Shown here piece after piece: positions 4,253 to 60,222 of a stretch of DNA of 64,000 nucleotides. Position 1 is the first letter of the stretch. Each line of letters starts with the position of its first letter. The notes beneath the pieces are model-generated. The model was given only the letters and a program-made list of their open reading frames with translations. It made no database searches and was not told the origin of the DNA. The stretch is from an uncultured Candidatus Saccharibacteria bacterium (GTDB taxonomy: Bacteria > Patescibacteriota > Minisyncoccia > Phycocordibacterales > UBA9973): contig CAZDGL010000003.1 in assembly GCA_964505155.1 (NCBI GenBank), positions 5,728 through 69,727 on the forward strand, given 5' to 3'. The position numbers and the translations under genes are program-made.

Positions 4253-4338
4253 AATATATGTATAAATACTATTGTATAACAAGATTTTTTAGAAGACTAT
4301 TTGTACAGTTATGTTGTATAATTATCTGTATAAAAAAT

Positions 4339-7300
4339 ATGAATGTAGCTATCAAAAAAATACTAAAACCTTTAGCCATAATTTTCGCCGCAACTTTTGT
4401 TTTTTGTTTTTTTTCTAGTGAATATAGCTATGCCGCAACTCGTACTTGGACTGGAGCAACTAGTGGCTCATGGTCTGTAGGATCAAACTGGTCAGGAGGA
4501 GTTGCTCCGGTGACAGGAGATGATCTGGTTTTCCCAGGTGGTGCATCAAACCTATCCAACACCAATGACCTCACAGAAAATACTATCATCAACTCTATCA
4601 CTATCTCTGGTAGTGGGTATACACTCTCTGGTAATCCAATCATCTTGGGTCCCGGTCTTGCTGGCCTTACTGATAGTGCATCTTCTGGTGGCAACACAGT
4701 AGCTCTTGATATTCGTCTCGACGCTACTCGAGATATTTTTGTTACAAACTCTGGAGAGACTCTTACTATTAGCGGGCGCATTGCCGGTGTGGGTGGTATC
4801 AACAAAGAAGGAACAGGTAAACTCGTACTCTCAGGTGCAAATACTTTTGGTGGTATTTTAAAAATCAACGTAGGTATTGTTAATGCACAAAACAACACTG
4901 CGCTTGGAACCATAGCAGCAGGAACTGAAGTTGTTGGTAATGCAGCACTCGAACTACAAGGCAACATAGACATCAGTTATGAAGCACTGGCTCTTCGTGG
5001 TTATGGGGTAAGTAGTACTGGAGCCCTAAGAAATATTAGTGGAACCAATACATATCGTGGACTCATCACACTTTCATCTGCTGGTGGTACAGAGATAGCA
5101 TCTGACTCCGGAACCCTTACAATCACCGGTGGTATGTCAGGAGCATTTCCTCTTGTGATTGATGGCTCTGGTGATGTTACTTATTCAACAACACCAATAG
5201 CTACGGGATCTGGTACTGTCACTAAAAACGGTTCCGGTACACTCACTTACAACTTTCCAAATACTTATAGTGGTCTTACGACTATAAACGCTGGGACACT
5301 TCTTTATGGTGTCGATAATGCTATTCTCACTGGCGCTATTACAGTAACTGGTGGGACGCTTGATATAGCGACTTATTCAGATATGGTCGGATCAGTAGTA
5401 GTTGGAACTCTCGACCTTGCAAGTGGTACTATCACTGGCTCAACTGGTGTTCTAAGTAGTGCTGCGTGGACTGTTTACAACGGTACTATATCTGCCATTA
5501 TCGCCGGATACGCTGGAACACTAACAAAAAGTACAACAGGGACAGTGGTGCTGACTCGTGCCAACCAGTTTACAGGAAACACAACAATAAGTGCCGGTAT
5601 TTTAGAAATCCAAAATAGCACATCTCTTGGTTTTATCGATGGTATTACGACGGTATCAGCTGGAGCAACACTCCAGATCAATGGTAGTGGCCTTTCTATT
5701 CCCGAATATATTACATTCTCTGGTACTGGACATTTGTATACTGGCGCTATAAGGAATATGGGTGGGGATAATACCTTGACAGGCTTACTTACCCTTGGGG
5801 CAGCAGCCAGAATCAAGTCTGATGCCAGTACTACACTAACTATTGATTCCAAAGGCCTTTCTGCGACAACACTTGGTCTTACTATTGGAGGTGCTGGAAA
5901 CACAACTTTTACTTCTACGGCACCTATATACGGAACTACAGCTACTCTTACCAAACAAGATAGTGGTGTTCTAACAATGCAAGCTTTTAACAACTTTACT
6001 GGTGCTACAAACTTAAACCGTGGGGAGATTGTACTAAGTAGTACAGGAGCTATGCCTAACTCTACTATTACTGTAGGTAGTGGAGGAACTCTTACCCTAG
6101 ATAATTCATCTACAACTCTTTTAAATCGTATTAGTGATTCTGCTGCTCTTACTATGAATGGTGGAAGTTTCAATTTTATAGGCAACGCAACTGGTACCGC
6201 TCTTGAAAATGCTGGAGCTCTCACTATTGCTTCGGGGCACAATACGGTGACTGTAACTCCTGGTGCTGGAGGTCCGACAACTATGAATTTTGCAAGTCTG
6301 TCACGCACGGCTGGAGCCACGGTACTTTTTCGTGGAACAAATCTTGGTTCCAACCCCGCACCCAACATCTCTACTATCATGTTTACTTCCGCTCCGGCAG
6401 TACTAGGTGGAGGTGGTGGAGCTGGTACTACTACTGCTAGTATCATAAAAGGTGCATTTGGTGACAGCTCTCTCTCTGGAACAGGTTCTGATATGGTCAC
6501 TTATAATCTTGGAAACACCAATGGGCTCCGCCTTTTAAACGGTGCTGGTTTCTCTGGTGAATATGCTTTTACACTAGCAACAAATGCCAATGTAAAACTT
6601 GTTGCTGATACTGTAGCGAGTACATCTAGTATTAATTCTCTTATTTTAGACGGATTTAGTATTACAAACCCAGGGAGTGCACAGACTATCACTCTATCAT
6701 CTGGATCTCTTGCTGGAAATATTCTTATGAATTCAGCAACCAGTATAGCTGGCGCAAATACGACACTCGGTATAACTACTAACCATCTTGATATTTTGAC
6801 AACAGCGAGTGCTACGATCTCTGCTGTTATTGGTACTGCGGTGGCTGGATCAGTCGCTATCAGTGGCACAGGAAGTGCGACAGTAAGTGCGGCTAATCTT
6901 TACACTGGTACAACATTTATCAATAATGCAACACTTTTTGCTGGGGCAACCAATGCGCTCTCTAGTGGTGGCGTGACTGTAGTAGGAGGTACATATGACT
7001 TGGGAAACTTCAATGATACTGTAGGTGCTGTCATACTTCAAAATGGAACTATAACTAGTGGTTCGGGTACTTTGTCTGGAACTTCTTATAGTCTTCGTGA
7101 AGGAACAGTAAGTGCGATTCTCGGCGGAGGAGCTGCTACTGTCACACGTATCGCCACAAGTGCGGCAGCTGATAGTGTGGTCACTATGACTCGTGACAAT
7201 ACATATACTGGAACAACAACAATCACAAGCGGAATACTTAAACTCGGTGCAGCCGGCGGTGGAACAAATACACCACTGGGTACCACTGGTGGTGGAACAC

Positions 7301-10300
7301 TCATTGCTAGTGGAGGAGCGCTAGATCTAAATGGTTATACTCTCGGAACAGCTGAAGCTATCACGTCTTTGGCAGGAACAGGTTTTGGTGCTTCTGGTAG
7401 TAGTAATATGGGAGCTATTATGAACAGCTCAGCTTCGCCTGCAAGCTATAGTGGAGCCCTGACACTTACTGCTGCGGCTCGTATCAATGCTGATGCTGGA
7501 GCACTTACTATTAGTGGGAATGCTTCTGGAAACTTTGCTCTAACCTTCGGAGGATTTTCTGATATCACTTATTCAGGAGTACGCTCTGGTACTAGTACTA
7601 TTGTAAAGGATGGAGTGAATACACTAACTCTTTCAAGTGGAAGCTCTTCTTATACAGGGGCCACTACTATAAGTGCTGGTACTGTAAAGGTTGGTGCTGC
7701 TTCAGTTGGTGGCACAAACTCTCCGCTTGGTACAACTGGTGGTGCTACTACTGTCGCGCTCGGTTCTCGACTTGATCTAAATGGATTTAACCTTGGAATA
7801 GCAGAACCTCTTACCCTAAACGGTGTCGGGTATGGACTCGGAGACTTTGCAAGTGGAGCTCTTGTAAATAGCTCAGGATCTACTGTAACTTATAGCGGAC
7901 TTATTACACTCGGGTCTGCTTCTACTATCAAAGCTGATTCGGGTACTGTTAACTTGACTGCTGCGGGTACAATATCAGGAGCAACGTTCGGACTAACTCT
8001 TGGCGGAGCAGGCACAGGAACACTCTCTAGTATTATAGGAACAACAACTGGTACAGTTACAAAAATAGATACAGGAACATGGACGATTTCAGGAGTTAGT
8101 ACTTATACAGGTGCTACTACTGTTAGTAGGGGCACTCTTAGATTGGGTGGTGGTGCAGGGGGCCCGACAAACTCAGTTTTAGGTACTACAGGTGGAGCTA
8201 CATCTGTTTTGAGTGGAGCGGTCTTGGATTTAAATGGTATTACTTTAGGTATAGCTGAGTCGCTTACAATAAACGGACGTGGAATAGACGATGGAGGTGC
8301 TCTTATCGGTGGCGCTGTGACTTGGCCTGGTACTGTTGCTCAAGCTACTGATTCTCGTATTACATCTTCTTCTGGAACACTTACTATTACTGGCGCCGTG
8401 AGTGGAGCCTTTGCTCTTTATGTTGGTGGTGCCGGCAATACTACATTTAGTACAGCTACTGGTACTGCGGGACTTAGTTTAACAAAACAAGGTGCCGGAA
8501 CTTTGACGCTAACTGGTACCAATACTCATACTGGGGCAACTCGAGTTGAATCCGGCACACTGGCTTATGCTGCATCTACGACCTTAGCGGCGACTGCGCT
8601 CACTGTTCTCGGTGGTACTTTTAACAGCGGTGCAAACGCTGACACTATCGGTGCTGTAACACTTATCGGTGGAACTATTACAAACTCTGCCGCTCTTACA
8701 GGTACTGCATATACCTTTGAAGGTGGAAATATTAGCGGTATTTTAGCTGGAGCAATTGCTGTAACAAAAAATACAAACAACACTGTCACTTTATCTGGAG
8801 TCAATACTATTAGTAGTACCATAACTATCAATGCAGGAACACTTACTTTCAGTGGTTCGGGGTCAGCTACTAGTGTTACCGGTGTTACAGTAAACCTCGG
8901 TGGTACATTGACTCTTGATAACTCTACAACAGCTGTGGCTGATAGACTCAACGGTACGGGTGGTACAAATGCCATTGTGCTGACAATGAACGGTGGCAAC
9001 TTCAACTTCATCGGTAATGGGGCAGCAGCATCTTCTGAAACACTTGGTCAGCTTGCTCTTGCATCGGGACACAACATTGTGACAGTTACTCCTGGTGCTG
9101 GTGGATCTACAACTCTTACTTTTGCAACTAACCCTGGATTTAACAGAACAGCTGGAGCAACAGTACTCTTCCGTGGTACTAATTTCGGCTCAAACTCTGG
9201 CGCCAATGTCTCTACTCTCGTATTTTCTACTACCCCTACACTAACTGGTGCAGGTGGAGCATCTGGTTCAGCGACAGTTAGTATTATCAAGGGTGCTTTT
9301 GGGGATAGCTCTCTTTCTGGAACAGGTTCTGATATGGTTACATACCAAGGTGGAACAGGACTTCGCTTACTTAACGGTGCGGGGTTTGCCAATGAATACT
9401 CTGGAGATTTTCAAACTGCCAATGCTAACGTTAAGCTCACTGCTGATCGCGCAGCAGTTGCTACCAACACCAACTCGCTTATACTAAACGGCTTTAGTGT
9501 TACTAACCCTGGAGGCGCAGTTACTATACCTATGGCTTCGGCATCACTCTCTGGTAACATTCTAATCAATTCAACAAATAATATCGCTGGCGCAAATACA
9601 ACTTTGGGTATTACCACTTTTGAATTACCTATTTTGGCTACAGCAAGTTCCACTATTTCCGCAACCATTGGTACTGCCACAACTGGCTCTCTAACATTAA
9701 GTGGCTCTGGTAACGTCACTCTCACTGCAACAAACGCTTACACCGGTACAACATTTATAAACAACGCTATACTGACCTCTGGTGCAAACAATGTGTTATC
9801 AAGTGGAGGTGTGACAGTAGTAGGTGGAACATACAACCTAAACGGCAATTCAGATACTGTCGGTAGTATATCTATAAATGCTGGAACTATTGCGACAGGT
9901 GCTGGTACTCTTACTGGCAACGGAACATTTACTACTGTTGCAAATGCTAACTTTGCTTCAATAATAACTGGTAACTTAGGTCTTGGCGCTAATGCTACAT
10001 TTACTATCAACGATGGACTTATGGATAATGACGCAGTTATCTCTGCAGTGATTAGTGGGGGATTTACTTTTGCAAAAGCGGGTAATGGAATTCTAGAGCT
10101 CTCTGGTAGTAACTCATATACTGGCACAACTACTATAAGCGGAGGAATACTCCGCCTGGGTGCTTCCGGTGGAGCTACAAACACTCCTCTTGGAACTACA
10201 GCAGGAGGAACCACCGTCTCTGGTGCAAGTTCGGCGCTTGATCTCAATGGTTACTCTCTCGGTACCTCTGAAGCACTGACCTTAAGTGGCGCTCTAGCAA

Positions 10301-13300
10301 CAGGAGCTCTACAAAATACTTCAAGTACTGCTGTAACCTATACAGGTCTTATCACACTCGGAGCAGCAAGTACTATCATTTCTAACTATGGAGATATTAG
10401 TATTACTAATAGCGGAACTATTTCAGGAGCAACATTTGGCCTAACTATTGGGGGAGCGGGCAATGGACTTCTCTTTAGTATTTTGGGTACTACAAGCGGC
10501 ACTCTCACAAAAAACGGTGTAGGAGTTTGGACTCTTTATGGTTCTAGCACTTTTACTGGCACAACTACTATAAGTGCTGGAACTCTCAAGCTTGGTGCTG
10601 CCGGTGGAGCTACAAACACTCCTCTTGGAACTACTGCAGGAGCAACTAGTATTACTAGTGGAGCTGTCCTGGATCTAAATGGTTTTACTCTTGGTACTGC
10701 TGAGCCAGTAACAATTAACGGAACAGGTATTGCAAGTATTGGAGCATTTATAAATAGTTCAAACAATACTATTTCTTATAGTGGAGCTATCACTCTAGGA
10801 GCTGCTTCTCGTGTTGCCAACTATGGTAGTGGGTTAATGACTGTTTCTGGAAACATCTCAGGTAACTTTGCCCTTACAGTTGTAACTGTAGGTAACTTTA
10901 CACAAGCAACAAATAGTGTTTGGTCCGGTTCAGGTTCTCTTGTAAAAGAAGGCTCAGGGACACTTATTTTATCAGGACAAAATAGCACGACTGGTGCAAT
11001 GACTGTTAGTACTGGTAAACTCCAGCTCGGTGCTTCCGGTGGAGCTACAAACACTCCTCTTGGAACAAATGCCGGAGGTGTGACTGTGTCTTCTGGAGCT
11101 GTTCTTGATCTAAGTACATTTTCTTTAGGTGGTGCATCAACATATGAGACACTAAACTTAAGTGGTACCGGTATAAACAATAACGGCGCTTTAACTTTTT
11201 CTGCTTCTACCAACAACAACTTTGGTGCTATGACAGTAGCAGCCAATACCCGTATAATAAACTCTGGTAGTGGCACTGTTACTTTCGGGGGGACAATAAC
11301 AGCTGCCAATGGAATAACTTTGGCTATTGGTGGTACTGGCCCAACGTCTATAACTGGAGTTTTTGGCGCGACAGCAACAACAGCTACTTTGACCAAGTGG
11401 GATGCTGGAACTCTGACTATTAGTGCTGCAAGTATTACTACTGGTTTGGTCCGTATCAACGGAGGAACACTGAGATATGGTGTTGCTGACGCACTCTCTA
11501 CTCCAGCTGTCACAGTAGCTGGCGGTACACTAAACTTGAACGGATTTAGTGAGACAAACATCGGTGCAGTAACTCTTATTGATGGGTCTATAGTAAACAC
11601 CGGTGCCGCCGCAACTCTGACTTCTACTGCGACATATACCCTTGAAAACGGAACTGTCAGTGCTGTTCTCGGTGGTGCCGTTGTAGCTGCTATTGTTAAA
11701 AATACTGCAGGAAGAGTTATCCTCTCAGGAGACAATACCTTCAATGGTACTTCTGCTACTATTGCTATAAATGCTGGATATTTAAATCTGCGTCACAACA
11801 ATGCTTTAGGAGCGGCTGCTAGTGCAAACACAACGACTATTTTAGGAGGGGCAACTCTTGAGCTCGAAAATAGTATCACTATACCAAGTGTCAAAGCTAT
11901 CACTGCAAATGGTACTGGTATGGAAAGAAATGGTGCAATAAGAAATGTTAGCGGAACAAACTCAATCGGTGCAAACATAACCCTAGGTACTACCAATGTC
12001 CGGATAAATTCAGATAGCGGAACTCTTACAATACCTACTGTTTCTGGGAATACTTTCAACTCAATCTTTGGCGGTGCAGGTAATACTACAGTCTCTGGAG
12101 CTATAACTACCACAAGCGGAACTCTTACAAAGGATGGTGCAGGTACACTTACTCTCTCTGGAAATAATACTTATACCGGTACTACAACTTTGATAAATGG
12201 TACTATTGTAGCCAACACTACAAATTCATTGGGAAATGAAAGCTCCACAAATACATTTATTTTTAGAGGCGGTACTTTGCAAGCAACAGGTACTATAACT
12301 TCTGCTGCAACTCGTGCTTTCACTCTAGCTTCAAATGCAACTATAGATACCAATGGCAACAGTGTTAGTATTGCCGGTACTGTAGGATCTATCGGCGGAC
12401 TTACAAAAACTGGTGCTGGTACCTTAACTATCACAGGTGTTACTACAATAGGAGGCAACCTTGCTATATCTTCTGGTACCTTTGTTGCACCAACGACTCT
12501 AACCCTGGGCGGAGACCTAACCAATAGCGGAACATTTACTCATAGTAATGGTACCGTTACAATAGCACCTACTAACTCTACACTAACCACAAATATTTTA
12601 GGTACTTCAGATACTGCGTTTTATAATCTAACCAACAATACTGCTGGCTCAACTATCCAGTTCAAAGCCGGCAACACTTATACTTTTGCCAATACACTAA
12701 TAATAAACGGTAGTGAAGGAAACCCTGTCTCAATAAACTCAGATAGCGCAGGTGTTCAGTGGTTGATGACTCTATCAGGTAGTGCTTCTCTTGCACACCT
12801 AAAAGTTAAAGATTCAGGTTGTAGTGGAGGCAACACCGTCTCAGCTAGTGGAAATGTTTATGACTATGGAAACAATGGTATATGTTGGTCATTTATATCT
12901 CCTGGATTTAAGCGAGGGGGAGATTCTATAGAGTCTTCTGCTGCTCCAAGTGGCCAAGTAGGTGGCGGAGGTAGTGGTGGTAGCGGTGGTGGCGGAGTTA
13001 GTTATGCAGTAGCCACTGCTGTAGTTTCTTCAAACGTTGTACAAAGTGTCACTATAGATTCTGGGGGTAGTGGTTATACCTTTGCGCCTACAGTACTGTT
13101 TTGTGGTGGTGGTGGCTCTGGTGCTTTAGGTACTGCAGTTTTGACAGGTGATGCTGTTTCAAGTGTGACAGTAGATAACGGTGGCTCTGGATACTCTAGT
13201 GTTCCTACAGTAGTGTTCAACAGTAACTGTCCTACTTCTGGTGGTAGCGGTGGCGGAGGTGGTGGGGGAGATATAGGATTTTTGTATCAAAGAAGAAGAT

Positions 13301-13380
13301 TCTTTGCTTTGTATAATCCTATAAATATAACTATTTTCAACTTCCTTTCTCAGGCATTTGTTCTCCAACCTAAGATTTAA
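4339..13380 (+). CDS. Giant (~3,010 aa) secreted adhesin-like protein built from autotransporter-associated beta-strand (PATR-type) repeats
   Basis: Signal peptide MNVAIKKILKPLAIIFAATFVFCFF..SYA. N-terminal motif WTGATSGSWSVGSNWSGGVAPVTGDDLVFPG and many repeats of the form G.GTLTLSG.NTYTGTTTISAGTL.LGA.GG.TNTPLGTT are characteristic of PATR/TIGR02601-type repeats. The ORF-track start at 4258 precedes the signal peptide, so ATG at 4339 is chosen. The C-terminus has poly-Gly runs. Confidence 0.8.
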   Translation: MNVAIKKILKPLAIIFAATFVFCFFSSEYSYAATRTWTGATSGSWSVGSNWSGGVAPVTGDDLVFPGGASNLSNTNDLTENTIINSITISGSGYTLSGNPIILGPGLAGLTDSASSGGNTVALDIRLDATRDIFVTNSGETLTISGRIAGVGGINKEGTGKLVLSGANTFGGILKINVGIVNAQNNTALGTIAAGTEVVGNAALELQGNIDISYEALALRGYGVSSTGALRNISGTNTYRGLITLSSAGGTEIASDSGTLTITGGMSGAFPLVIDGSGDVTYSTTPIATGSGTVTKNGSGTLTYNFPNTYSGLTTINAGTLLYGVDNAILTGAITVTGGTLDIATYSDMVGSVVVGTLDLASGTITGSTGVLSSAAWTVYNGTISAIIAGYAGTLTKSTTGTVVLTRANQFTGNTTISAGILEIQNSTSLGFIDGITTVSAGATLQINGSGLSIPEYITFSGTGHLYTGAIRNMGGDNTLTGLLTLGAAARIKSDASTTLTIDSKGLSATTLGLTIGGAGNTTFTSTAPIYGTTATLTKQDSGVLTMQAFNNFTGATNLNRGEIVLSSTGAMPNSTITVGSGGTLTLDNSSTTLLNRISDSAALTMNGGSFNFIGNATGTALENAGALTIASGHNTVTVTPGAGGPTTMNFASLSRTAGATVLFRGTNLGSNPAPNISTIMFTSAPAVLGGGGGAGTTTASIIKGAFGDSSLSGTGSDMVTYNLGNTNGLRLLNGAGFSGEYAFTLATNANVKLVADTVASTSSINSLILDGFSITNPGSAQTITLSSGSLAGNILMNSATSIAGANTTLGITTNHLDILTTASATISAVIGTAVAGSVAISGTGSATVSAANLYTGTTFINNATLFAGATNALSSGGVTVVGGTYDLGNFNDTVGAVILQNGTITSGSGTLSGTSYSLREGTVSAILGGGAATVTRIATSAAADSVVTMTRDNTYTGTTTITSGILKLGAAGGGTNTPLGTTGGGTLIASGGALDLNGYTLGTAEAITSLAGTGFGASGSSNMGAIMNSSASPASYSGALTLTAAARINADAGALTISGNASGNFALTFGGFSDITYSGVRSGTSTIVKDGVNTLTLSSGSSSYTGATTISAGTVKVGAASVGGTNSPLGTTGGATTVALGSRLDLNGFNLGIAEPLTLNGVGYGLGDFASGALVNSSGSTVTYSGLITLGSASTIKADSGTVNLTAAGTISGATFGLTLGGAGTGTLSSIIGTTTGTVTKIDTGTWTISGVSTYTGATTVSRGTLRLGGGAGGPTNSVLGTTGGATSVLSGAVLDLNGITLGIAESLTINGRGIDDGGALIGGAVTWPGTVAQATDSRITSSSGTLTITGAVSGAFALYVGGAGNTTFSTATGTAGLSLTKQGAGTLTLTGTNTHTGATRVESGTLAYAASTTLAATALTVLGGTFNSGANADTIGAVTLIGGTITNSAALTGTAYTFEGGNISGILAGAIAVTKNTNNTVTLSGVNTISSTITINAGTLTFSGSGSATSVTGVTVNLGGTLTLDNSTTAVADRLNGTGGTNAIVLTMNGGNFNFIGNGAAASSETLGQLALASGHNIVTVTPGAGGSTTLTFATNPGFNRTAGATVLFRGTNFGSNSGANVSTLVFSTTPTLTGAGGASGSATVSIIKGAFGDSSLSGTGSDMVTYQGGTGLRLLNGAGFANEYSGDFQTANANVKLTADRAAVATNTNSLILNGFSVTNPGGAVTIPMASASLSGNILINSTNNIAGANTTLGITTFELPILATASSTISATIGTATTGSLTLSGSGNVTLTATNAYTGTTFINNAILTSGANNVLSSGGVTVVGGTYNLNGNSDTVGSISINAGTIATGAGTLTGNGTFTTVANANFASIITGNLGLGANATFTINDGLMDNDAVISAVISGGFTFAKAGNGILELSGSNSYTGTTTISGGILRLGASGGATNTPLGTTAGGTTVSGASSALDLNGYSLGTSEALTLSGALATGALQNTSSTAVTYTGLITLGAASTIISNYGDISITNSGTISGATFGLTIGGAGNGLLFSILGTTSGTLTKNGVGVWTLYGSSTFTGTTTISAGTLKLGAAGGATNTPLGTTAGATSITSGAVLDLNGFTLGTAEPVTINGTGIASIGAFINSSNNTISYSGAITLGAASRVANYGSGLMTVSGNISGNFALTVVTVGNFTQATNSVWSGSGSLVKEGSGTLILSGQNSTTGAMTVSTGKLQLGASGGATNTPLGTNAGGVTVSSGAVLDLSTFSLGGASTYETLNLSGTGINNNGALTFSASTNNNFGAMTVAANTRIINSGSGTVTFGGTITAANGITLAIGGTGPTSITGVFGATATTATLTKWDAGTLTISAASITTGLVRINGGTLRYGVADALSTPAVTVAGGTLNLNGFSETNIGAVTLIDGSIVNTGAAATLTSTATYTLENGTVSAVLGGAVVAAIVKNTAGRVILSGDNTFNGTSATIAINAGYLNLRHNNALGAAASANTTTILGGATLELENSITIPSVKAITANGTGMERNGAIRNVSGTNSIGANITLGTTNVRINSDSGTLTIPTVSGNTFNSIFGGAGNTTVSGAITTTSGTLTKDGAGTLTLSGNNTYTGTTTLINGTIVANTTNSLGNESSTNTFIFRGGTLQATGTITSAATRAFTLASNATIDTNGNSVSIAGTVGSIGGLTKTGAGTLTITGVTTIGGNLAISSGTFVAPTTLTLGGDLTNSGTFTHSNGTVTIAPTNSTLTTNILGTSDTAFYNLTNNTAGSTIQFKAGNTYTFANTLIINGSEGNPVSINSDSAGVQWLMTLSGSASLAHLKVKDSGCSGGNTVSASGNVYDYGNNGICWSFISPGFKRGGDSIESSAAPSGQVGGGGSGGSGGGGVSYAVATAVVSSNVVQSVTIDSGGSGYTFAPTVLFCGGGGSGALGTAVLTGDAVSSVTVDNGGSGYSSVPTVVFNSNCPTSGGSGGGGGGGDIGFLYQRRRFFALYNPINITIFNFLSQAFVLQPKI
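6050..7400 (+). repeat. Intragenic large repeat, copy 1 (within the giant adhesin gene)
   Basis: Protein segment NGGSFNFIGNATGTALENAGALTIASGHNTVTVTPGAGG...RTAGATVLFRGTN...IIKGAFGDSSLSGTGSDMVTY... and the following ~450 aa recur about 2.85 kb downstream. DNA identity is high locally, e.g. ggtgcatttggtgacagctctctctctggaacaggttctgatatggt versus ggtgcttttggggatagctctctttctggaacaggttctgatatggt. Boundaries are approximate. Confidence 0.6.
8900..10300 (+). repeat. Intragenic large repeat, copy 2
   Basis: Second copy: NGGNFNFIGNGAAASSETLGQLALASGHNIVTVTPGAGG...RTAGATVLFRGTN...IIKGAFGDSSLSGTGSDMVTY.... The similarity continues through GILRLGASGGATNTPLGTTAGG and beyond. Boundaries are approximate. Confidence 0.6.
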
Positions 13381-41398: not shown

Positions 41399-41427
41399 TT
41401 GACAAAAAAGTATATATAAGCTATGAT
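41399..41427 (+). promoter_or_regulatory. Strong sigma70-type promoter TTGACA-17-TATGAT
   Basis: ttgaca at 41399-41404, exactly 17 nt, tatgat at 41422-41427; just downstream of the uvrC stop. Confidence 0.55.
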
Positions 41428-41434
41428 AATAAAA

Positions 41435-42020
41435 AAGTTATTTATATGCTAAAAAACGATTTATCATTTTGGGTTTGAAGGGGAAAGCAAAAAGAAACTT
41501 TCCAGTCTTCACCTAGTTACTTGGTAACAAAAATACATGTTTCAGAGCCAAAGATACACTAATTTGGGCCAGAATCTGAGCTTATATTTAAAATGGTAAG
41601 TAAGTATTATCAATAGTTAGATATGTTTCTAATCAGACTCCTACGAGTACAGAGTCTATGTGTCGTTGGGTCAATTAAAAAGTTCCTCAATGATTAACAT
41701 GATAGGTCTGGGACCAATTACGCCACCTCGTAAAAAGCGGCGTTATCTGTAGATTACATATCCTCTTTGTTGAAAGTTGCGATCGCAATAAGTAAGCAAT
41801 GCAGTTTTAAGTAGTAAAACCGAGCTGTGATTCTCTGGATAGAATCGTTATGTGTTAACAAACAGCGCTTTTTGTTTCAAACCACGTTTTGTGGAAATCA
41901 AAAAGAGGTTCAAGGACTTATTACCGAAAATACTGAGAAGAGTTTAGTGAACACTACCTGATCAGTACACTAAGCCAAACAAAAGAAACTTAACAAAACC
42001 TCGATATTCGGGGTTTTTTA
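41435..42020 (+). ncRNA. Candidate ~590-nt non-coding transcript (unidentified structured RNA or long leader) between the promoter at 41399 and the terminator at 41995
   Basis: No ATG ORF longer than 24 codons on the + strand across ~600 nt in an otherwise tightly packed window; bracketed by a consensus promoter and an intrinsic terminator. RNase P RNA CR-I/CR-IV motifs and a tmRNA tRNA-like end were looked for and not found. Confidence 0.3.
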
Positions 42021-42026
42021 TTTACC
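41995..42026 (+). terminator. Rho-independent terminator
   Basis: 9-bp stem aaaacctcg/cggggtttt with loop atatt, followed by ttttatttac; 30 nt upstream of the ATG at 42056. Confidence 0.65.
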
Positions 42027-42055: not shown

Positions 42056-43105
42056 ATGAATACATCTAAGAAGATTTGGGTTATTGTTGTTTTTTCTGTA
42101 GTTATTTTGACTTCTGGGTTTTTGACTTCTATTTTTTTGACCAGCAAAATAGATAGAGAACAAAGAGAACAGCTTTTGATAGATGCCAAGCAGGCTGCGC
42201 TTTTGGTGCCGACTTCTACTCTTAGCACTCTTTCAGCTAGTCCTTCTGATGTTGGCAACCCTCTTTATTCAGAAATGAAAGAAAAGCTAATGATGTTTCG
42301 CCAGTACAATCCACAAAACCGCTTCGTCTATGTTTTGGGCTATAAACCAGAAATCAAAAAACAGTTTTTCTTTGTAGACTCAGAACCTGTCTCTTCTAGT
42401 GACTATTCAGCTCCAGGTGCCCTTTTTCCAGATACAAGAGAAAAAGATATAGAAAATTATCTCAAAGGTGAAGCTTATACCGATGGACCTTATAGTGATA
42501 GTTGGGGTGAATGGGTCTCTGGTTATGCACCTATCAAAGATAATAGTGGAGAAATGATAGGGCTTTTGGGTATAGATACAGCAACTAGCATTTGGCATGA
42601 GCAAATAGGTTTTGTGCGCACTGTTGTTTTGCTTATATCAATACTGCTTTGTTTGTTGTTTGGTTTTATAGTCTATGTTTTAAACAAAAAGCAAAGCTCT
42701 ATCAATACCTTGGTAAAAGAAAACCAAAATCTTTATAACAAAGAAAATAAATTTAAAGAAATGCAGGATTTGGCTCACTTAGGAAGGATCTCTGTTTATT
42801 TTCCAGAGCAAACTTTTGTTTTTGATGGCGCGATAACCAAAAGCCTAGCTATATCTGATGGGGAGAGGCTTAGTAAAGAAGATTTTTCAAATTTTATAAA
42901 AGATTCTGACAAAGATAAGCTTCAAAGTTTCTTGGACTCTTTTAAGGAGACCAAAGATGTCTATGGATGGCTTGATATAGCGCTTGGAACAAAAGATCGA
43001 GGTTATAGAACATTTCATATCTATGGCAACTTACAGAGAGATGAACTACTGGCGCCAAAGAAATTCTCTGGTATCATCCAAGACATTACTGACATAAACA
43101 ATTAA
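42056..43105 (+). CDS. Membrane protein with two TM helices flanking an extracytoplasmic sensor-like domain and a cytoplasmic coiled coil
   Basis: TM1 IWVIVVFSVVILTSGFLTSIFL, ~160-aa extracellular region, TM2 VVLLISILLCLLFGFIVYVL, then a helical C-terminal region. No kinase or output domain. Confidence 0.5.
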   Translation: MNTSKKIWVIVVFSVVILTSGFLTSIFLTSKIDREQREQLLIDAKQAALLVPTSTLSTLSASPSDVGNPLYSEMKEKLMMFRQYNPQNRFVYVLGYKPEIKKQFFFVDSEPVSSSDYSAPGALFPDTREKDIENYLKGEAYTDGPYSDSWGEWVSGYAPIKDNSGEMIGLLGIDTATSIWHEQIGFVRTVVLLISILLCLLFGFIVYVLNKKQSSINTLVKENQNLYNKENKFKEMQDLAHLGRISVYFPEQTFVFDGAITKSLAISDGERLSKEDFSNFIKDSDKDKLQSFLDSFKETKDVYGWLDIALGTKDRGYRTFHIYGNLQRDELLAPKKFSGIIQDITDINN

Positions 43106-50298: not shown

Positions 50299-50348
50299 AT
50301 AAATTGACTTTTGTATTTTTTGTCTTATACTGAAAAAAATTAACAACT

Positions 50349-50558
50349 ATGAAAAATAAAATAAGTCGAATTGGATGGTGGACAACCTTAACCATTGTCG
50401 GACTGGTGATTGCCATAGTGATCCAACTATTTACCAGATATTGGATTTGGTGGGAGTGGATTATCTATGCAGTTATTTTCATCGTAGTATGCCTTTTAGT
50501 TTTTTTAGGTTGTTTTCTTTGGATTTTTAAAGATGTAAATATAGAAGATGACCAATAA
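50349..50558 (+). CDS. Small two-TM membrane protein, hypothetical
   Basis: 69 aa with two hydrophobic helices. Confidence 0.4.
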   Translation: MKNKISRIGWWTTLTIVGLVIAIVIQLFTRYWIWWEWIIYAVIFIVVCLLVFLGCFLWIFKDVNIEDDQ

Positions 50559-50625
50559 AGATTTTTATCAAAGGCGTTATTCATTGTAAAAGAGCTTACT
50601 ATTTTGTAAGCTCTTCTTGTTTTCA

Positions 50626-54346: not shown

Positions 54347-54480
54347 CCTCTAAGTATAAAAAGGAGATGCCTGCCCCGTTGGAAGCGATTAGCTTTCCTG
54401 CGGGGTTATAGAATTTAGAATATAGACTTGACTTTTTAGGTAAAAGGTGCTATACTTAATTACGAACTAAATCAATACAT

Positions 54481-54699
54481 ATGAAAAAGAAGACCATATT
54501 TTTCTGGATGTTTTATACTCTGGTGGTAATGGCTCTGATTTATCTAACAAAAGGCTTCTCCTTTCCTTCGGGCGGTGATACTGCACAAGGAGGATTCCAG
54601 CTTATTTGTTGGACTGCAACTTTTTCTCCTGTGATTTTAAAATTGTTTATTAGTCCAATTGCCAAGTTTTTGGCACAAAGGAATCAAAAAAGAGTATAA
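54481..54699 (+). CDS. Small membrane protein, hypothetical
   Basis: 72 aa with two hydrophobic segments; followed by a strong terminator. Confidence 0.4.
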   Translation: MKKKTIFFWMFYTLVVMALIYLTKGFSFPSGGDTAQGGFQLICWTATFSPVILKLFISPIAKFLAQRNQKRV

Positions 54700-54700
54700 A

Positions 54701-56209: not shown

Positions 56210-57091
56210 TTATTTCGCATATTTTTTAAACCAAGTTCTTTGGCGTTTGACGTATTGCCAGCTATCTTTTTGTATATTTTCTATCATTATCTCTTTTGAA
56301 ATTTTGTTTTGTAAAAATAGAGCAAGGTATTTATATTCAAGTCCAAGTGACTCGAGTCGTTCCCAAGACACTCCTTCCGTGTGTAGTCTTTCTACTTCTT
56401 CTACCATACCCATATCTAATCTTTTTATTAGTCTGTCATGAATACGTTTTTTTAGTACATCATCTGGTAGGTCTAAATAATGCCAGTCTATATCATACTC
56501 AGGATTTTTTGTTAGTTCCGGTACAGTTCCAAGTTCTGTGGCTATTTCTATAGCACGGATAAGACGAACTTTGTTTTTTTTATCAACGAGATCAAAGCGT
56601 CGTGGATCGAGAGTTTCTAATCTTTGTTGTAAATCCTCCAAAGAAAGTTCTTGAAGTTCTGTACGAAGTTTAGGGTTTGGTGGAACGGCAGGGAAGATGG
56701 TACCGCAAACAACAGCGTCTATATATAGTCCTGTACCACCACAAATGATCGGTGTATGCCCTCGAGCAATAATCTCATCAATAGTCTTGGTCGCAAGGCT
56801 TTGGTACTGTGTGACCGATAAGACGTCTTTTGGATCAGCTACATTGAGTAAATGGTGGGGGATGCCATGCATTTCTTCGGTAGTGATTTTGCCACTTCCT
56901 ATATCAAGACCTTTGTATACTTGTCGCGAGTCAGCAGAAATAACTTCGCCTAAAACTTCTCTTTGAGAAGTTCGGCCGACCACGCTGTTTGCGTGGTTTA
57001 GGTCACCAAGATTCTTGGCAAGTTCTACGGCATAATCACTTTTGCCTGTAGCAGTCGGCCCACAAACGACTATTATTTTTTGCTTTTTCAT
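56210..57091 (-). CDS. miaA: tRNA dimethylallyltransferase
   Basis: N-terminal P-loop IIVVCGPTATGKSD; conserved MiaA core (DSRQVYKGLDIGSGKIT); 293 aa. Confidence 0.85.
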   Translation of the reverse strand: MKKQKIIVVCGPTATGKSDYAVELAKNLGDLNHANSVVGRTSQREVLGEVISADSRQVYKGLDIGSGKITTEEMHGIPHHLLNVADPKDVLSVTQYQSLATKTIDEIIARGHTPIICGGTGLYIDAVVCGTIFPAVPPNPKLRTELQELSLEDLQQRLETLDPRRFDLVDKKNKVRLIRAIEIATELGTVPELTKNPEYDIDWHYLDLPDDVLKKRIHDRLIKRLDMGMVEEVERLHTEGVSWERLESLGLEYKYLALFLQNKISKEIMIENIQKDSWQYVKRQRTWFKKYAK

Positions 57092-57095
57092 TTTG

Positions 57096-57176
57096 TGCCC
57101 GAGGAGAGACTTGAACTCTCACCCCTTACGAGACTCGATTTTGAGTCGAGCGCGTCTACCATTCCGCCACTCGGGC
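57096..57176 (-). tRNA. tRNA-Leu (anticodon CAA), type II with long variable arm
   Basis: Reverse complement GCCCGAGTGGCGGAATGGTAGACGCGCTCGACTCAAAATCGAGTCTCGTAAGGGGTGAGAGTTCAAGTCTCTCCTCGGGCA: acceptor GCCCGAG/CTCGGGC, anticodon stem CTCGA/TCGAG with loop CTCAAAA, 13-nt variable arm, T-stem GAGAG/CTCTC. Confidence 0.85.
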
Positions 57177-57182
57177 TTTTAA

Positions 57183-57197
57183 CCCGCCTTGGGCGGG
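57183..57197. repeat. GC-rich palindromic hairpin CCCGCC-TTG-GGCGGG (core 13-mer CCGCCTTGGGCGG), copy 2, 7 nt upstream of the tRNA-Leu 5' end
   Basis: Identical 13-mer to 24635-24647. On the + strand it is followed by aatttctttatttt. Confidence 0.6.
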
Positions 57198-57254
57198 AAT
57201 TTCTTTATTTTACATGGTTTCTCAGGGAAGTAAATATAAGAAATAAATACTTAC

Positions 57255-57282
57255 TTGACAATATTTGTCAAAGGTGTATACT
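57255..57282 (+). promoter_or_regulatory. Sigma70-type promoter TTGACA-16-TATACT inside a palindrome TTGACAATATTTGTCAA (possible divergent promoter pair)
   Basis: ttgaca at 57255-57260, tatact at 57277-57282. The palindrome places a TTGACA on the minus strand as well, oriented toward tRNA-Leu/miaA. Confidence 0.5.
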
Positions 57283-57288
57283 AAGAGT

Positions 57289-57700
57289 AAGAATAAATAA
57301 GTTCTTACTTCGTAGTGAATATGTAGCTACGGAATATACAAATCAAAAAAACAAAGAAGATGAAAAAACAACGATCTGCGGAATCTCCGCCTGGCTCAAC
57401 AGCCAACATCTTTTCCGGCCACAGCGCCAAAAATATTAATTTTTATTTTCCTGTTTCCGGAATGAACCCGGTAATTTCCTGCTGATCCGCCAGCTGGCCC
57501 GGGGCTACAAATCCAACATAGGAATGTAGACCTCGGGGCCGAAGCCGGAATATTTCAAGAATCGAGCCGTATATTTACCCTGCTCAATAAGTTAGAGGGT
57601 GGCTCAAAAAAATCTGCCCATGTCGTGGCAGGCAAGATTGTGCCGGACTATCCGGTAAAAAGAGAAAGCCCCAACAAATGTTGGGGCTTATTTTATTTTT
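57289..57700 (+). ncRNA. Candidate ~400-nt transcript with an anomalously GC-rich (~50%+) structured core, ending in a strong terminator just upstream of parB (unidentified ncRNA, leader, or decayed foreign gene fragment)
   Basis: Promoter at 57255. Perfect 8-bp hairpin agtaagaa/ttcttact at ~57286-57309, then multiple GC hairpins (ccgg-aatgaac-ccgg; ctgcc..ggcag; ccgga-cta-tccgg). Contains only a 41-codon ATG ORF (57360-57485). GC content contrasts sharply with the flanks. Confidence 0.3.
57666..57700 (+). terminator. Rho-independent terminator
   Basis: Stem aagcccc-aa/tt-ggggctt (about 9 bp) followed by ttattttatttttt; 28 nt upstream of the parB start. Confidence 0.7.
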
Positions 57701-57727
57701 TATACAAAAAAGTTTTTATGTTATCAT

Positions 57728-58774
57728 ATGTTCATGTCAAACCTTTATTCAAATTCTATTTTCTTTATCGATACGGACAAGATTTTTCCCAACCCATATC
57801 AACCTCGTCGAGAATTTGAAGAAGGTCCACTTAAAGATTTGTCAGAGTCTATTCGTCAATACGGAGTGTTACAACCTTTGACAGTCTCTCGTGTAGAAAA
57901 AGAAACTCCAGAGGGAGGACTCAAGACAGAATACGAACTCATTGCCGGAGAGCGACGATTGCGCGCTGCCAAGTTGGCAGGTATACCACAAGTGCCGGTG
58001 ATTATCCGTGTCGGAGATGATCCGATGATGAAGCTTGAGCTGGCGATCATCGAAAACGTTCAGCGCGAAGATCTCAATCCTGTAGAGCGAGCCAGAAGCT
58101 TTGCGCGTTTGGTAGAGGAGTTCAAGCTTACTCACACCCAGATAGGTCAAAAGGTAGGTAAGAGTCGTGAATATGTTTCAAACTCTTTGCGTATCTTGGC
58201 GATGCCGGCAGAGCTACTCGATGCTCTTTCAGCTGGCAAGATAAATGAAGGTCACACCAGACCACTTCTCATGCTCTCTAGTCGCCCAGAAGAGCAGATG
58301 ACGCTTTTCAAGGAGATAGTTTATCGCAAGATTTCAGTGCGTGAGGCGGAACGTATAGCTCGCAGAATAGCTGTAGAGAAGTCTCGCAAAAAGGAACTCC
58401 TGCCGACACCTGAGCTGATGGAGATAGAAAAGCAGTTGGCTGAGAAGCTCGGTACTCGCGTACATATCCAAAAGAGTGAAGTCGGAGGCAAAATCACGAT
58501 AGATTATTTCTCTGATGAAGATTTAGGTGTGATAGTCGATGTTCTTGGCAAGGCTGAGGCTGGTAGAAGTAGTGCTGAGTCTTTCCAATCCATGATAGCG
58601 AGCAAGGAAGGAGGCGAGACTGTAGCTAGAGACGACCTAGCAGATAAAAACGAAGACAAGGTAGCTGAAGAAAAGCTTGAAGTAGAAATGCTCGACGATA
58701 GAGACCCACAAGAGAAAAAAGAATCAGAACAAGACGTAGACGATCTCTACAATATCAAAAACTTCTCTCTCTAA
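57728..58774 (+). CDS. parB: Chromosome partitioning protein ParB/Spo0J
   Basis: ParB box region YELIAGERRLRAAKLAGIPQVPVIIR and HTH (QIGQKVGKSREYVSNSLRIL); acidic C-terminal tail. Confidence 0.85.
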   Translation: MFMSNLYSNSIFFIDTDKIFPNPYQPRREFEEGPLKDLSESIRQYGVLQPLTVSRVEKETPEGGLKTEYELIAGERRLRAAKLAGIPQVPVIIRVGDDPMMKLELAIIENVQREDLNPVERARSFARLVEEFKLTHTQIGQKVGKSREYVSNSLRILAMPAELLDALSAGKINEGHTRPLLMLSSRPEEQMTLFKEIVYRKISVREAERIARRIAVEKSRKKELLPTPELMEIEKQLAEKLGTRVHIQKSEVGGKITIDYFSDEDLGVIVDVLGKAEAGRSSAESFQSMIASKEGGETVARDDLADKNEDKVAEEKLEVEMLDDRDPQEKKESEQDVDDLYNIKNFSL

Positions 58775-60222
58775 AATTTTTCTTGGTTTTCTAGGAAGCC
58801 TCTGATCTTTCTTTTGGCGAAGCTACTTTTGGCATGATCCAACCATTTGCTAGTTGGATGAGAGTTTTTGCTAGTTGTTACCTCTACAATGTCGCCATTT
58901 TTGAGCTTGGTATCTATGCTAACCATTTTTTTGTTGACCTTGGCTGCGCTTAGATGTCCGCCAATGTCTGAGTGGATAGCATAAGCAAAATCTATAGGAC
59001 TTGAGTCTTCTGGTAAGTCTACGACATCACCTTTTGGTGTGAAGACAAATATCCGGTGGGTAAAAAAGTCGAGTTTGAGCTCGTTCATATCGTCAATACT
59101 TTTTACCATACTTGAGAGCTCTTTGAGCTGGCTCAGCCAAGACTGTTGTTCACTTGGTTTTAACTTTTTTTCTGCGGAATTTTGTTTATAAACTAAGTGT
59201 GAGGCGATACCCAACTCAGCATCATCGTGCATTTCTTTGGTTCTTATTTGAATTTCGACTATACCGTCATTTGTAATAACTGTCGTGTGAAGAGATCTAT
59301 AGCCATTTGGTTTAGGAACAGCTATCCAGTCTTTGATGCGACCTTGTACAGGTTTCCATTCCATATGCATCAAACCAAGCACTTGGTAACAATCAGGGAT
59401 ATTTTCAACCAATATTCTAAGAGCGACGATGTCATGAATCTTTTCTCTATTCATTTCATACTTAACAAGTTTTCTATACAAACTATAGGTGTGTTTAACT
59501 CTTGCTTCAACAGAGCCTTTGATACCAAAAGAATCAAGTATTTCTACAACTTGGTTTTTTACTTTTGTAACAACCTTGGTTGCCTCGGGCACCATTTGAT
59601 TCATTAGCTCTATCGTTTCTTCGCACTCTTTTGGATAAGCGAAAGGGAAGGCATAGTCTTCGAGAAGGCCTTTGAGTTTACCCATACCGAGACGTCCTGC
59701 AAGAGGTGCATAGACTTCTATGGTCTCTATAGCGATGCGTTTTTGTTTGTCCTCTCTCACATGTTCTAGGGTTTGAACATTGTGAAGTCTGTCAGCTAGT
59801 TTGATGATCAGTACGCGCACGTCTTCTGCTAGTGCGATAAAAAACTTACGCATACTTTCTACGTGGCGCTCTACGCCTTGATATTTTAGAGTTCCTAATT
59901 TTGTTACTCCTTCAACCAAAAACACTACGTCATCTCCAAATATTTCTCTGATTTCTTCTGCGCTAGCTTCTGTGTCTTCTAAGGTATCGTGAAGCAAGGC
60001 TCCAGCGATAGTAACAGCGTCAGCACCCAAGTTAGCGCAGTTTTTGGCAACTTCTACAGCGTGGTAAAAGTAGGGTTCGCCACTATTTCGCTTTTGCCCA
60101 TCGTGAGCATTTTGGGCAAAGTTGTAAGCTTCTTCTATCAAAGCCCTTTCGCTATCAGAGAGCTCTTGTTGTGAGCTTTGGTATATTTCTTCTAGAGAGG
60201 CTTTACTTTCCATGTTGTCCAT
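58771..60222 (-). CDS. rel: Short RelA/SpoT-family (p)ppGpp synthetase/hydrolase (HD, synthetase and TGS domains; no ACT domain)
   Basis: HD motif HDTLEDT, synthetase motif YRSLHTTVITNDGIVEIQIRTKEMH, TGS-like IFVFTPKGDVVDLPEDSSPIDFAYAIHSDIG; 483 aa. Confidence 0.85.
   Translation of the reverse strand: MDNMESKASLEEIYQSSQQELSDSERALIEEAYNFAQNAHDGQKRNSGEPYFYHAVEVAKNCANLGADAVTIAGALLHDTLEDTEASAEEIREIFGDDVVFLVEGVTKLGTLKYQGVERHVESMRKFFIALAEDVRVLIIKLADRLHNVQTLEHVREDKQKRIAIETIEVYAPLAGRLGMGKLKGLLEDYAFPFAYPKECEETIELMNQMVPEATKVVTKVKNQVVEILDSFGIKGSVEARVKHTYSLYRKLVKYEMNREKIHDIVALRILVENIPDCYQVLGLMHMEWKPVQGRIKDWIAVPKPNGYRSLHTTVITNDGIVEIQIRTKEMHDDAELGIASHLVYKQNSAEKKLKPSEQQSWLSQLKELSSMVKSIDDMNELKLDFFTHRIFVFTPKGDVVDLPEDSSPIDFAYAIHSDIGGHLSAAKVNKKMVSIDTKLKNGDIVEVTTSKNSHPTSKWLDHAKSSFAKRKIRGFLENQEKF

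Follow-up and report, generated by a model that had tools for sequence, protein, structure and literature searches.

A hypervariable promoter-to-terminator unit between tRNA-Leu and parB, probably a small-protein gene with a structured 3′ region, in one clade of Paceibacteria

The stretch of DNA analyzed here, 64,000 nt of contig CAZDGL010000003.1 (assembly GCA_964505155.1; hereafter the window), carries a stand-alone unit at positions 57255-57704 of the + strand, between the gene for tRNA-Leu(CAA) and an apparently leaderless parB. A sequence-only reading of the same DNA had seen in this segment a GC-rich, hairpin-packed element poor in open reading frames (ORFs), with its own promoter and terminator, and had proposed a structured non-coding RNA, a riboregulatory leader or a decayed foreign fragment. 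According to our analysis, that description is confirmed in part and its interpretation is partly supported. The unit is probably a fast-evolving small-protein mini-gene, restricted to one clade of Paceibacteria, whose 3′ untranslated region (UTR) would stabilize the message and insulate the next gene.

Genomic Setting and Comparison Set

Related loci were collected by ParB-anchored searches of GTDB genomes and of metagenomes of the Joint Genome Institute (JGI), and further ones by exact-protein look-ups of the ParB relatives; an exact look-up of the ParB of the window itself returned no record. The comparison set comprised about 30 informative loci with shared synteny, and eleven homologues of the unit were alignable (group A: L081, L082, L001, L198/L199, L200, L201, L002, L010, L209/L210, and L212/L213). 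The closest ParB relatives of the window are found in metagenome-assembled genomes named Candidatus Paceibacterota or Nomurabacteria, of the Candidate Phyla Radiation (CPR). The order miaA, tRNA-Leu, unit, parB, relA/spoT is maintained among the relatives, from which the Pfam labels of the three protein genes were taken. The features that frame and define the unit in the window are the following:

56210-57091, − strand: miaA
57095-57176, − strand: tRNA-Leu(CAA)
57207-57234, − strand: promoter of tRNA-Leu(CAA), TTTACT-16-TAAAAT, the left boundary of the unit
57255-57282, + strand: promoter of the unit, TTGACA-16-TATACT, matching the consensus at 11 of 12 positions (−35 at 57255-57260, −10 at 57277-57282)
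57288-57307, + strand: 5′-terminal hairpin (UAAGAAU / AGUUCUUA) in the minimum free energy structure, at or near the predicted transcription start
57309-57333, + strand: second hairpin of the 5′ UTR, 8 bp with the conserved loop GAAUAUGUA (RNAalifold on 6 sequences)
57360-57485, + strand: small ORF of 41 codons plus UGA, MKKQRSAESPPGSTANIFSGHSAKNINFYFPVSGMNPVISC
57666-57704, + strand: intrinsic terminator, a 10-bp stem with 6 G-C pairs (57666-57689) followed by a T-tract
57719-57736, + strand: extended −10 element of parB, TGTTATCAT (57719-57727), and its conserved start ATGTCAAAC at 57734, the right boundary of the unit
57728 or 57734 to 58774, + strand: parB
58771-60222, − strand: relA/spoT-type gene

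The spacer between tRNA-Leu and parB measures 62-97 nt in twelve relatives (L006, L012, L013, L014, L016, L089, L091, L092, L096, L100, L101, and L102), whereas it reaches 230-670 nt and holds one or two promoter-to-terminator units in those with a ParB at least 79% identical, and in L011 and L093. This contrast in spacer length indicates that the unit is a discrete, clade-specific insertion, which is sporadically absent. It lies on the 5′ (promoter) side of tRNA-Leu and not at its 3′ end. Integrases act at the 3′ end of tRNA genes.

The promoter motif of tRNA-Leu (cttattttacatgg..gaagtaaat) and the extended −10 of parB (TGTTATnAT, a few nucleotides ahead of ATGTC) are conserved in all relatives, including the unit-less L006, and parB appears to be independent of the unit. 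About 40 ORF starts of the window were inspected (e.g., 13874, 30447, 43878, 48359, 53345, and 57734), and most genes were found to have an extended −10 (TGnTAnnAT) merely 5-10 nt before the ATG and no Shine-Dalgarno (SD) sequence. Most genes of this genome, among them parB, thus seem to start translation without a leader or independently of an SD sequence.

Architecture and Composition of the Unit

The presence of a dedicated promoter and terminator, as the sequence-only reading had proposed, is confirmed. The promoter is nearly invariant across the homologues (TTGACA..TCAAAGGTGTATACT), and transcription would start at about 57289, judging from the position of the −10 element. The −35 hexamer sits within TTGACAATATTTGTCAA (57255-57271), a perfect 7-3-7 palindrome with the arms TTGACAA and TTGTCAA around TAT. 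The palindromic −35 is kept in most close homologues (L081, L001, L002, L010, L201, and L211) and could be an operator for some repressor or a back-to-back pair of −35 boxes.

Downstream of the promoter, the leader motif AGUUCUU(U)A is found again in most related units, and four of the eight pairs of the second 5′-UTR hairpin show compensatory double changes in the six-sequence alignment. At the other end, the terminator stems differ in sequence among the relatives but keep their structure (pair 204:212 is GC in four sequences and AU in three), and the T-tract ends about 28 nt upstream of the first parB ATG (57728). The transcript of 413 nt predicted from these boundaries folds far more stably than shuffled sequences, with z = −6.7 for the + strand and z = −4.2 for the − strand, in agreement with the earlier description of a hairpin-packed segment.

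The composition of the segment is less unusual than had been claimed. A jump to 50-55% GC had been read over 57360-57660. The rise is present, placing this interval in the top 2.6% of 300-nt windows (mean 39.5%, SD 4.7), but its value is 47.8%, no higher than that of parB; with 200-nt windows, the element peaks at 47.5% and the neighboring parB at 52.5%. The increase is thus genuine but modest and comparable to that of neighboring genes. Since parB windows reach 52.5%, the apparent spike is mostly a contrast with the flanking AT-rich promoter and terminator spacers and not a sign of foreign origin.

The 41-Codon Open Reading Frame

The frame at 57360-57485 is indeed the only ATG ORF of the segment. 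The sequence-only reading had dismissed it and had called the segment ORF-poor; this cannot be maintained, as the frame stays open in all eleven group-A homologues (39-57 codons) and its ATG is conserved in every one of them. The frame is kept even where the homologous sequences diverge past alignability. Across the same stretch, the other two frames contain 0-5 stops each, with at least one stop in all but one case. The probability that a shuffled sequence has an ORF at least as long is 0.055-0.195 per sequence, and no single sequence is significant. In cleanly aligned pairs, all indels within the ORF are multiples of three (9, 3, 3, 3, 6, and 3 nt between L001 and L198; 15 nt between the window and L082), unlike those of the 3′ region of L001 and L198, which measure 1, 1, 1, 10, 3, 1, and 2 nt.

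The peptide sequence from this ORF (MKKQRSAESPPG..) belongs to a set with a conserved N-terminal part of about 23 residues, MKKQ-x4-SPPG[FSY][TN]A-x2-4-G[HQ]SA, and a hypervariable C-terminal part. Within the N-terminal motif, synonymous codons are exchanged (Ser9 TCT/TCA/TCG; Pro CCT/CCC; Ser22 AGC/AGT), and the ratio of nonsynonymous to synonymous substitution rates (dN/dS) is 0.25-0.86. The peptides of all homologues are hydrophilic, rich in S, T, N, G, and P, with a basic N-terminus and no membrane helix; clusters of F and Y also occur. The leader upstream of 57360 is A-rich, unstructured and without an SD sequence, and the start context as a whole (A/U-rich, no SD, AAA AAA after the ATG, an MKK.. 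N-terminus) resembles that of the other genes of the genome. In addition, the JGI gene callers independently annotated the homologous ORFs in L198/L199 and L209/L210 (56 and 47 aa).

At the RNA level, the ORF stretch is close to random in its folding (mean z about −0.2 in 19 homologues, range −2.6 to +1.4), the window being an outlier at −2.6. Judging from the start context and the behavior of the frame, the ORF appears to be translated, and it is the best-supported coding feature of the segment.

The Structured 3′ Region

Between the stop codon of the ORF, which is embedded in the conserved cUGAUCCGCC, and the terminator lies a 3′ region of about 180 nt (57486-57665) made up of hairpin modules, all on the + strand:

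57495-57541: P7, a long irregular hairpin (UGGCCCGGGGCUAC ... GUAG-A-CCUCGGGGCCG) directly after the stop codon, truncated in L081
57553-57568: UUUCAAGAAUCGAGCC, the most conserved stretch of the 3′ domain
57564-57605: P8, a closing stem GAGCC/GGCUC around a variable inner hairpin
57606-57631: a run of seven A followed by hairpin Hx (CUGCC-CAUGUCGU-GGCAG; 57614-57631)
57643-57655: Hy, an optional hairpin (CCGGA-CUA-UCCGG), found in the window, L081, L211, and L212 but not in the L001 group

RNAalifold on seven sequences of the 3′ domain predicted 31 pairs, eight of them with compensatory double changes. In P7, pair 22:58 is GC in three sequences and CG in three, and pair 23:57 is GC or AU. Inspection of Hx showed that its third stem pair varies among the lineages: the window and L081 have G-C, L010 has A-U, L212 has C-G, and L211 has G-U. 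In UUUCAAGAAUCGAGCC, the first 11 nt or so are predicted to be unpaired and the last 5 nt provide the 5′ arm of P8; the 10-nt UUUCAAGAAU is invariant in all seven sequences of alignment A2, and the full 16-mer is exact in five of them (the window, L001, L081, L082, and L083). The inner hairpin of P8 is ACCCU..AGGGU in the window and has other sequences in the relatives, and the whole P8 module is deleted in L200. The folding z-score of the 3′ domain lies between −1.5 and −6.1 in 15 of 19 homologues. In nucleotide terms, this domain is the best-conserved part of the unit (82% vs. 71% identity to L001), and a covariance model of P7-P8 (R1) found only seven close members, at 81-128 bits.

These data support the earlier proposal of a structured RNA for the 3′ half of the unit, with its compensatory changes and its negative z-scores in most homologues, and do not support it for the half occupied by the ORF. 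They also bear on a frame at 57475-57660 (…NVDLGAEAGIFQESS…) that had been taken for a protein remnant. This frame is interrupted in L001, has stops and non-triplet indels in the homologues, and has no homologue in the databases searched. We therefore regard the 3′ half as a putative non-coding structured RNA and not as a protein remnant.

Hypervariability and Mosaicism

One relative, L081, encodes a ParB protein 100% identical to that of the window and has flanks with about 97% nucleotide identity; the promoter of the unit, its 5′ UTR, the first six codons, and the terminator are about 98% identical. Between these ends, at 57388-57666, only 18-37 of every 50 positions match, with many gaps. 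The same pattern of a hypervariable interior is seen in an independent pair, L198 and L200, which encode identical ParB proteins. Overall, the interior of the unit is 50-70% identical between strains whose flanks are 97-100% identical. Since this divergence lies far above that of the flanks, neutral drift in place is excluded, and recombination among old diverged alleles or local hypermutation is required.

A mosaic structure was observed in L082, which is window-like at 57358-57447, equals L081 at 57448-57462, is window-like again up to 57552, resembles L081 at 57553-57612, and is then unlike either until the terminator. At this locus, the more distant units have the architecture in common (promoter, AGUUCUU(U)A leader motif, an ATG followed by K/R-rich codons, hairpins, and terminator) but differ in the ORF (11-34 codons, e.g., MKRRQS…KAQLII..) and in the 3′ modules. 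Two different units in tandem were found in L204, L207, and L081.

The allele pattern is analogous to that of loci under diversifying or frequency-dependent selection, such as pherotype and bacteriocin precursors. A search for a second copy of any part of the unit found none in the 64-kb window or elsewhere in the collected loci. With no template copy in the window, and with changes that consist of indels and block replacements and not of point changes at A, a process of the type of diversity-generating retroelements is unlikely; this candidate was rejected for want of a template repeat and of an A-specific substitution pattern in the 64-kb window, reverse transcriptase genes not having been specifically searched for.

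Searches for Known Families and Homologues

The sequence-only reading had suggested a comparison with Rfam. At the gathering threshold, Rfam 15, whose families include transfer-messenger RNA, RNase P, 6S, SRP, riboswitches, and large ornate RNAs, recognized only three tRNAs in the window, and only tRNAs in 14 homologous loci, which is consistent with the absence of a known RNA family from the unit. In E-value mode, 57150-57780 gave matches far under the threshold, the best-scoring ones being driven by the terminator hairpin; the weak matches to Phe and Thr leaders likewise arise from the terminator alone. A transfer-messenger RNA (tmRNA) was also considered. Such RNAs combine a tRNA-like domain (acceptor stem formed by the 5′ and 3′ ends, T-arm, and CCA) with a tag ORF that has no AUG. 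Neither ARAGORN nor Rfam found a tmRNA, the 3′ end of the unit consists of the terminator hairpin and U-tract, and the ORF starts with AUG, so that this candidate was rejected.

Homology to a truncated gene was also looked for, with a negative outcome in protein, Pfam, phage, and plasmid searches. The 85-aa frame singled out by the earlier reading and eight other stop-free stretches had no homologue in a search of 5.8 billion proteins or in Pfam. Phage and plasmid blastn gave a single 34-nt terminator-like match. A 15-mer scan of viral contigs returned 37 matches, none extending past 15-19 nt, and one 27-nt match at 89% identity; the lack of extension beyond 15-19 nt marks the 15-mer matches as chance. 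Our literature search on small RNAs or motifs of CPR bacteria found nothing relevant.

Interpretation of the Unit

With moderate confidence, we interpret the unit as a fast-evolving, stand-alone small-protein mini-gene with a stabilizing and insulating 3′ UTR, confined to one Paceibacteria clade. We infer that it is transcribed and translated in the following way. The near-consensus sigma-70 promoter would initiate an RNA of about 410 nt, which two 5′ hairpins, one of them at the extreme 5′ end, would probably shield. The A-rich, unstructured, SD-less leader would expose the AUG in the start context usual for this genome, and the 41-codon ORF would yield a peptide that is hydrophilic and probably disordered, with protein-level conservation over the N-terminal 23 or so residues and free variation in the C-terminal half. 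The string of 3′ hairpins and the strong terminator most likely stabilize the message and protect the adjacent leaderless parB promoter against read-through, and the 3′ region might alternatively function as RNA itself. The product is probably a stable and abundant mRNA. Alleles that diverge far faster than the flanking genes, with modules that seem to be reshuffled by recombination, would point to diversifying or frequency-dependent selection, or to a very relaxed constraint save for keeping the unit transcribed, translated, and folded. The genomes of CPR (Patescibacteria) are tiny and tightly packed, and a 450-nt "intergenic" unit with a consensus promoter is therefore unlikely to be idle. 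In our view, the unit represents a new unannotated family of small genes or RNAs of a known general kind, its unusual trait being hypervariability at the strain level.

Several observations weigh against a small-protein gene. The 41-aa peptide has no homologue, either in a word-indexed search or in a full phmmer search of 1.84 billion representatives, and ten homologous peptides have no Pfam or NCBIfam domain, although at such a length both results have low power. Over the whole ORF, dN/dS is about 0.5-1.7, so that most of the peptide sequence is without detectable purifying selection; this also fits a case in which translation matters and the peptide does not. An in-ORF hairpin, GGCU..AGCC in the window, GGUGG..CCACC in L201, and GGGC..GCCC in L010, seems by inspection to be kept by compensatory change, which hints at a constraint on the RNA. 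Because the ORFs of more distant units at the same locus have just 11-34 codons and differing sequences, the family is a loose one. Finally, as the contigs come from metagenomes, some of the mosaicism could reflect chimeric assembly of strains that occur together.

The main rival is a regulatory or dual-function small RNA, whose product would be the RNA (e.g., the single-stranded UUUCAAGAAU between hairpins) and whose ORF would be translated only as a by-product or as a means of controlling how the RNA folds or how stable it is. We regard this as possible but considerably less probable than a small-protein gene, while recognizing that the data fail to separate the two. The 3′ domain is the best-conserved part at the nucleotide level (82% vs. 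71% to L001), folds significantly, covaries, and holds the invariant unpaired 10-mer; dN/dS is about 1 across most of the ORF even though the frame is kept; and the layout with a strong promoter and terminator is typical of small RNA genes. However, the synonymous-codon pattern in the N-terminal motif favors a functional peptide, the 3′ domain turns over quickly (only seven members found with R1; a whole module missing from L200), there is no Rfam match, and the complement of the putative seed, UUUCAAGAAUC, is not enriched in the window (14 matches vs. 12.9 expected). Dual-function small RNAs and small-ORF mRNAs such as RNAIII-hld of Staphylococcus, SgrS-SgrT of E. coli, and SR1-SR1P of B. subtilis resemble the unit in being single promoter-to-terminator units of a few hundred nucleotides, with a short ORF and a multi-hairpin part, that stand alone between housekeeping genes. 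The unit differs from them in lacking any sequence or Rfam relationship and any identified target pairing. They are also conserved within species, whereas the interior of the unit is hypervariable among near-identical strains.

A more specific version of the small-protein reading, which we put forward only tentatively and by analogy, is that the unit encodes the precursor of a strain-specific ("pherotype"-like) peptide, possibly together with an RNA; the conserved N-terminus of about 23 aa would serve as a handle, and the hypervariable C-terminus would be a cassette swapped by recombination. The ComC precursors of competence-stimulating peptide pherotypes, class II bacteriocins, and the prochlorosin precursor ProcA are of similar size (ComC also has 41 aa), with about 23 conserved N-terminal and 18-30 variable C-terminal residues and mosaic alleles. 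Unlike these precursors, the peptide of the unit has no double-glycine (GG/GA) or other recognized cleavage motif, and its N-terminus is basic, unlike that of a typical leader. None of the genes next to the unit, in the window or in its relatives, encodes an exporter, peptidase, maturase, or sensor, contrary to what is expected of precursors of ribosomally synthesized and post-translationally modified peptides or of the double-glycine type.

It is unlikely that the unit is a translated leader (attenuator) governing read-through from its strong promoter into parB. A short ORF, hairpins, and a terminator immediately ahead of a gene are found in the trpL, pheL, and pyrL attenuators, in leader peptides the frame is likewise preserved despite little sequence conservation, and the F and Y clusters of the peptides would be compatible with such a role. 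Nevertheless, every relative, whether it carries the unit or not, has an extended −10 and a leaderless start that belong to parB itself, which also makes the earlier proposal of a riboregulatory leader of parB improbable. Moreover, the stop codon lies about 180 nt and four to five hairpins upstream of the terminator, and a transcript reading through would place a long leader without an SD sequence before parB, in a genome of leaderless starts. Only one anti-terminator pairing could be proposed, between 57403-57410 and the 3′ arm of the terminator, and it is missing from L081 although L081 shares that terminator. Thus, the unit differs from trpL, pheL, and pyrL in having no conserved antiterminator, a long distance from stop to terminator, and a downstream gene with its own promoter that is unit-free in some relatives.

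Still more doubtful is a module resembling type I toxin-antitoxin systems, in which the mRNA of a toxic peptide would be opposed by an antisense RNA over its 3′ end, terminating on the − strand at Hx and its U-run. Read on the − strand, Hx with the A7 run and the reverse complement of the main terminator both resemble intrinsic terminators, and a promoter-like site (TTGAAT-18-TATGAT) is found on that strand at 57752-57723. As in bsrG/SR4 and txpA/ratA, a small ORF lies on a structured mRNA with terminator-like hairpins on both strands, and such loci are typically variable and patchily distributed. Type I toxins, however, have a membrane helix, and the peptide of the unit is hydrophilic and has none. 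The − strand promoter-like site falls within the promoter and coding sequence of parB and is equally present in the unit-less L006; it would thus not belong to the unit as such, and we found no antisense promoter peculiar to the unit.

A horizontally acquired gene in decay at a tRNA hot spot, as proposed by the sequence-only reading, or a non-functional fast-evolving spacer is highly improbable: the patchy distribution, the extreme divergence, and the adjacent tRNA gene would suit it, but no searched frame has a homologue in proteins, Pfam, phages, or plasmids, the viral 15-mer matches are chance, the relatives keep the promoter, the terminator, the frame of the ORF, and the hairpins, the unit adjoins the tRNA at the promoter end, and its GC content is like that of neighboring genes.

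Other Features of the Window and Its Relatives

A second, unrelated "type 2" mini-unit was observed upstream of parB in L204 (660-850), L207 (470-650), L081 (1-45), L005, L007, L093, and L206. It has the promoter TTGACA…TGCTATTAT, an ORF of 11-15 codons (MN[AT]LIGYYYLKE.. or MKKFMHRLSAKH), and the motif GGGACGGCGACCC or the terminator CCTCTGTTTCTACAGAGG. As this type 2 unit occurs alone or in tandem with the type 1 unit, the spacer between tRNA-Leu and parB appears to be a hot spot for mini-genes, holding zero, one, or two of them depending on the relative.

On the other side, an insert of about 120 nt separates tRNA-Leu from its conserved promoter in L001 (2350-2470) and also in L198, L200, L201, L002, L011, L009, and L209. 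This insert gives the tRNA a long, structured leader at its 5′ side on the − strand and includes two near-perfect hairpins (CACAAAATATACTG…CAGTATATTTTGTG-like, and GGATAAAAGTAAAGCAGTTTACTTTTATCC). At this position, the window has only a short hairpin (57183-57197).

Elsewhere in the window, a second promoter-to-terminator unit was noted at 41399-42025 on the + strand. It starts with the canonical promoter TTGACA-17-TATGAT (41399-41427); about 570 nt devoid of a long ORF follow, and a terminator (…aaaacctcgatattcggggttttttattt) closes the unit just ahead of the gene at 42056. Rfam gave no match here even at E ≤ 1, and the segment may correspond to another unannotated long non-coding RNA or to several clustered small genes. 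Two genes for small hydrophobic proteins of about 69 and 72 aa (MKNKISRIGWW… and MKKKTIFFWMF…) lie in "intergenic" gaps at 50304-50560 and 54428-54700 (+ strand), each with a canonical −35/−10 promoter, a short leader, and its own terminator. A single ORF of 3040 aa occupies 4258-13380 (+ strand). Giant proteins are typical of CPR genomes. The possibility of a replication origin at the tRNA-Leu/parB unit was rejected, as GC skew shows no inflection near 57 kb.

Implications

Our analysis indicates that unannotated small-ORF genes with structured RNA tails exist in CPR (Patescibacteria). The unit is also a reminder that a GC "spike" in an AT-rich genome may be a tiny gene and not a non-coding RNA or junk. 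Within the unit, modules are shuffled far more quickly than the housekeeping neighbors change, which is the signature usual at loci of conflict or recognition. If the unit does encode a pherotype-like precursor, the peptide might act in recognition, competition, or host interaction of these episymbiotic bacteria, and the locus would be one of diversifying selection of a kind undescribed in Patescibacteria, lying within an annotated intergenic gap. If its expression is confirmed, the unit would be a compact means of following how strains diversify in an uncultured symbiont lineage.

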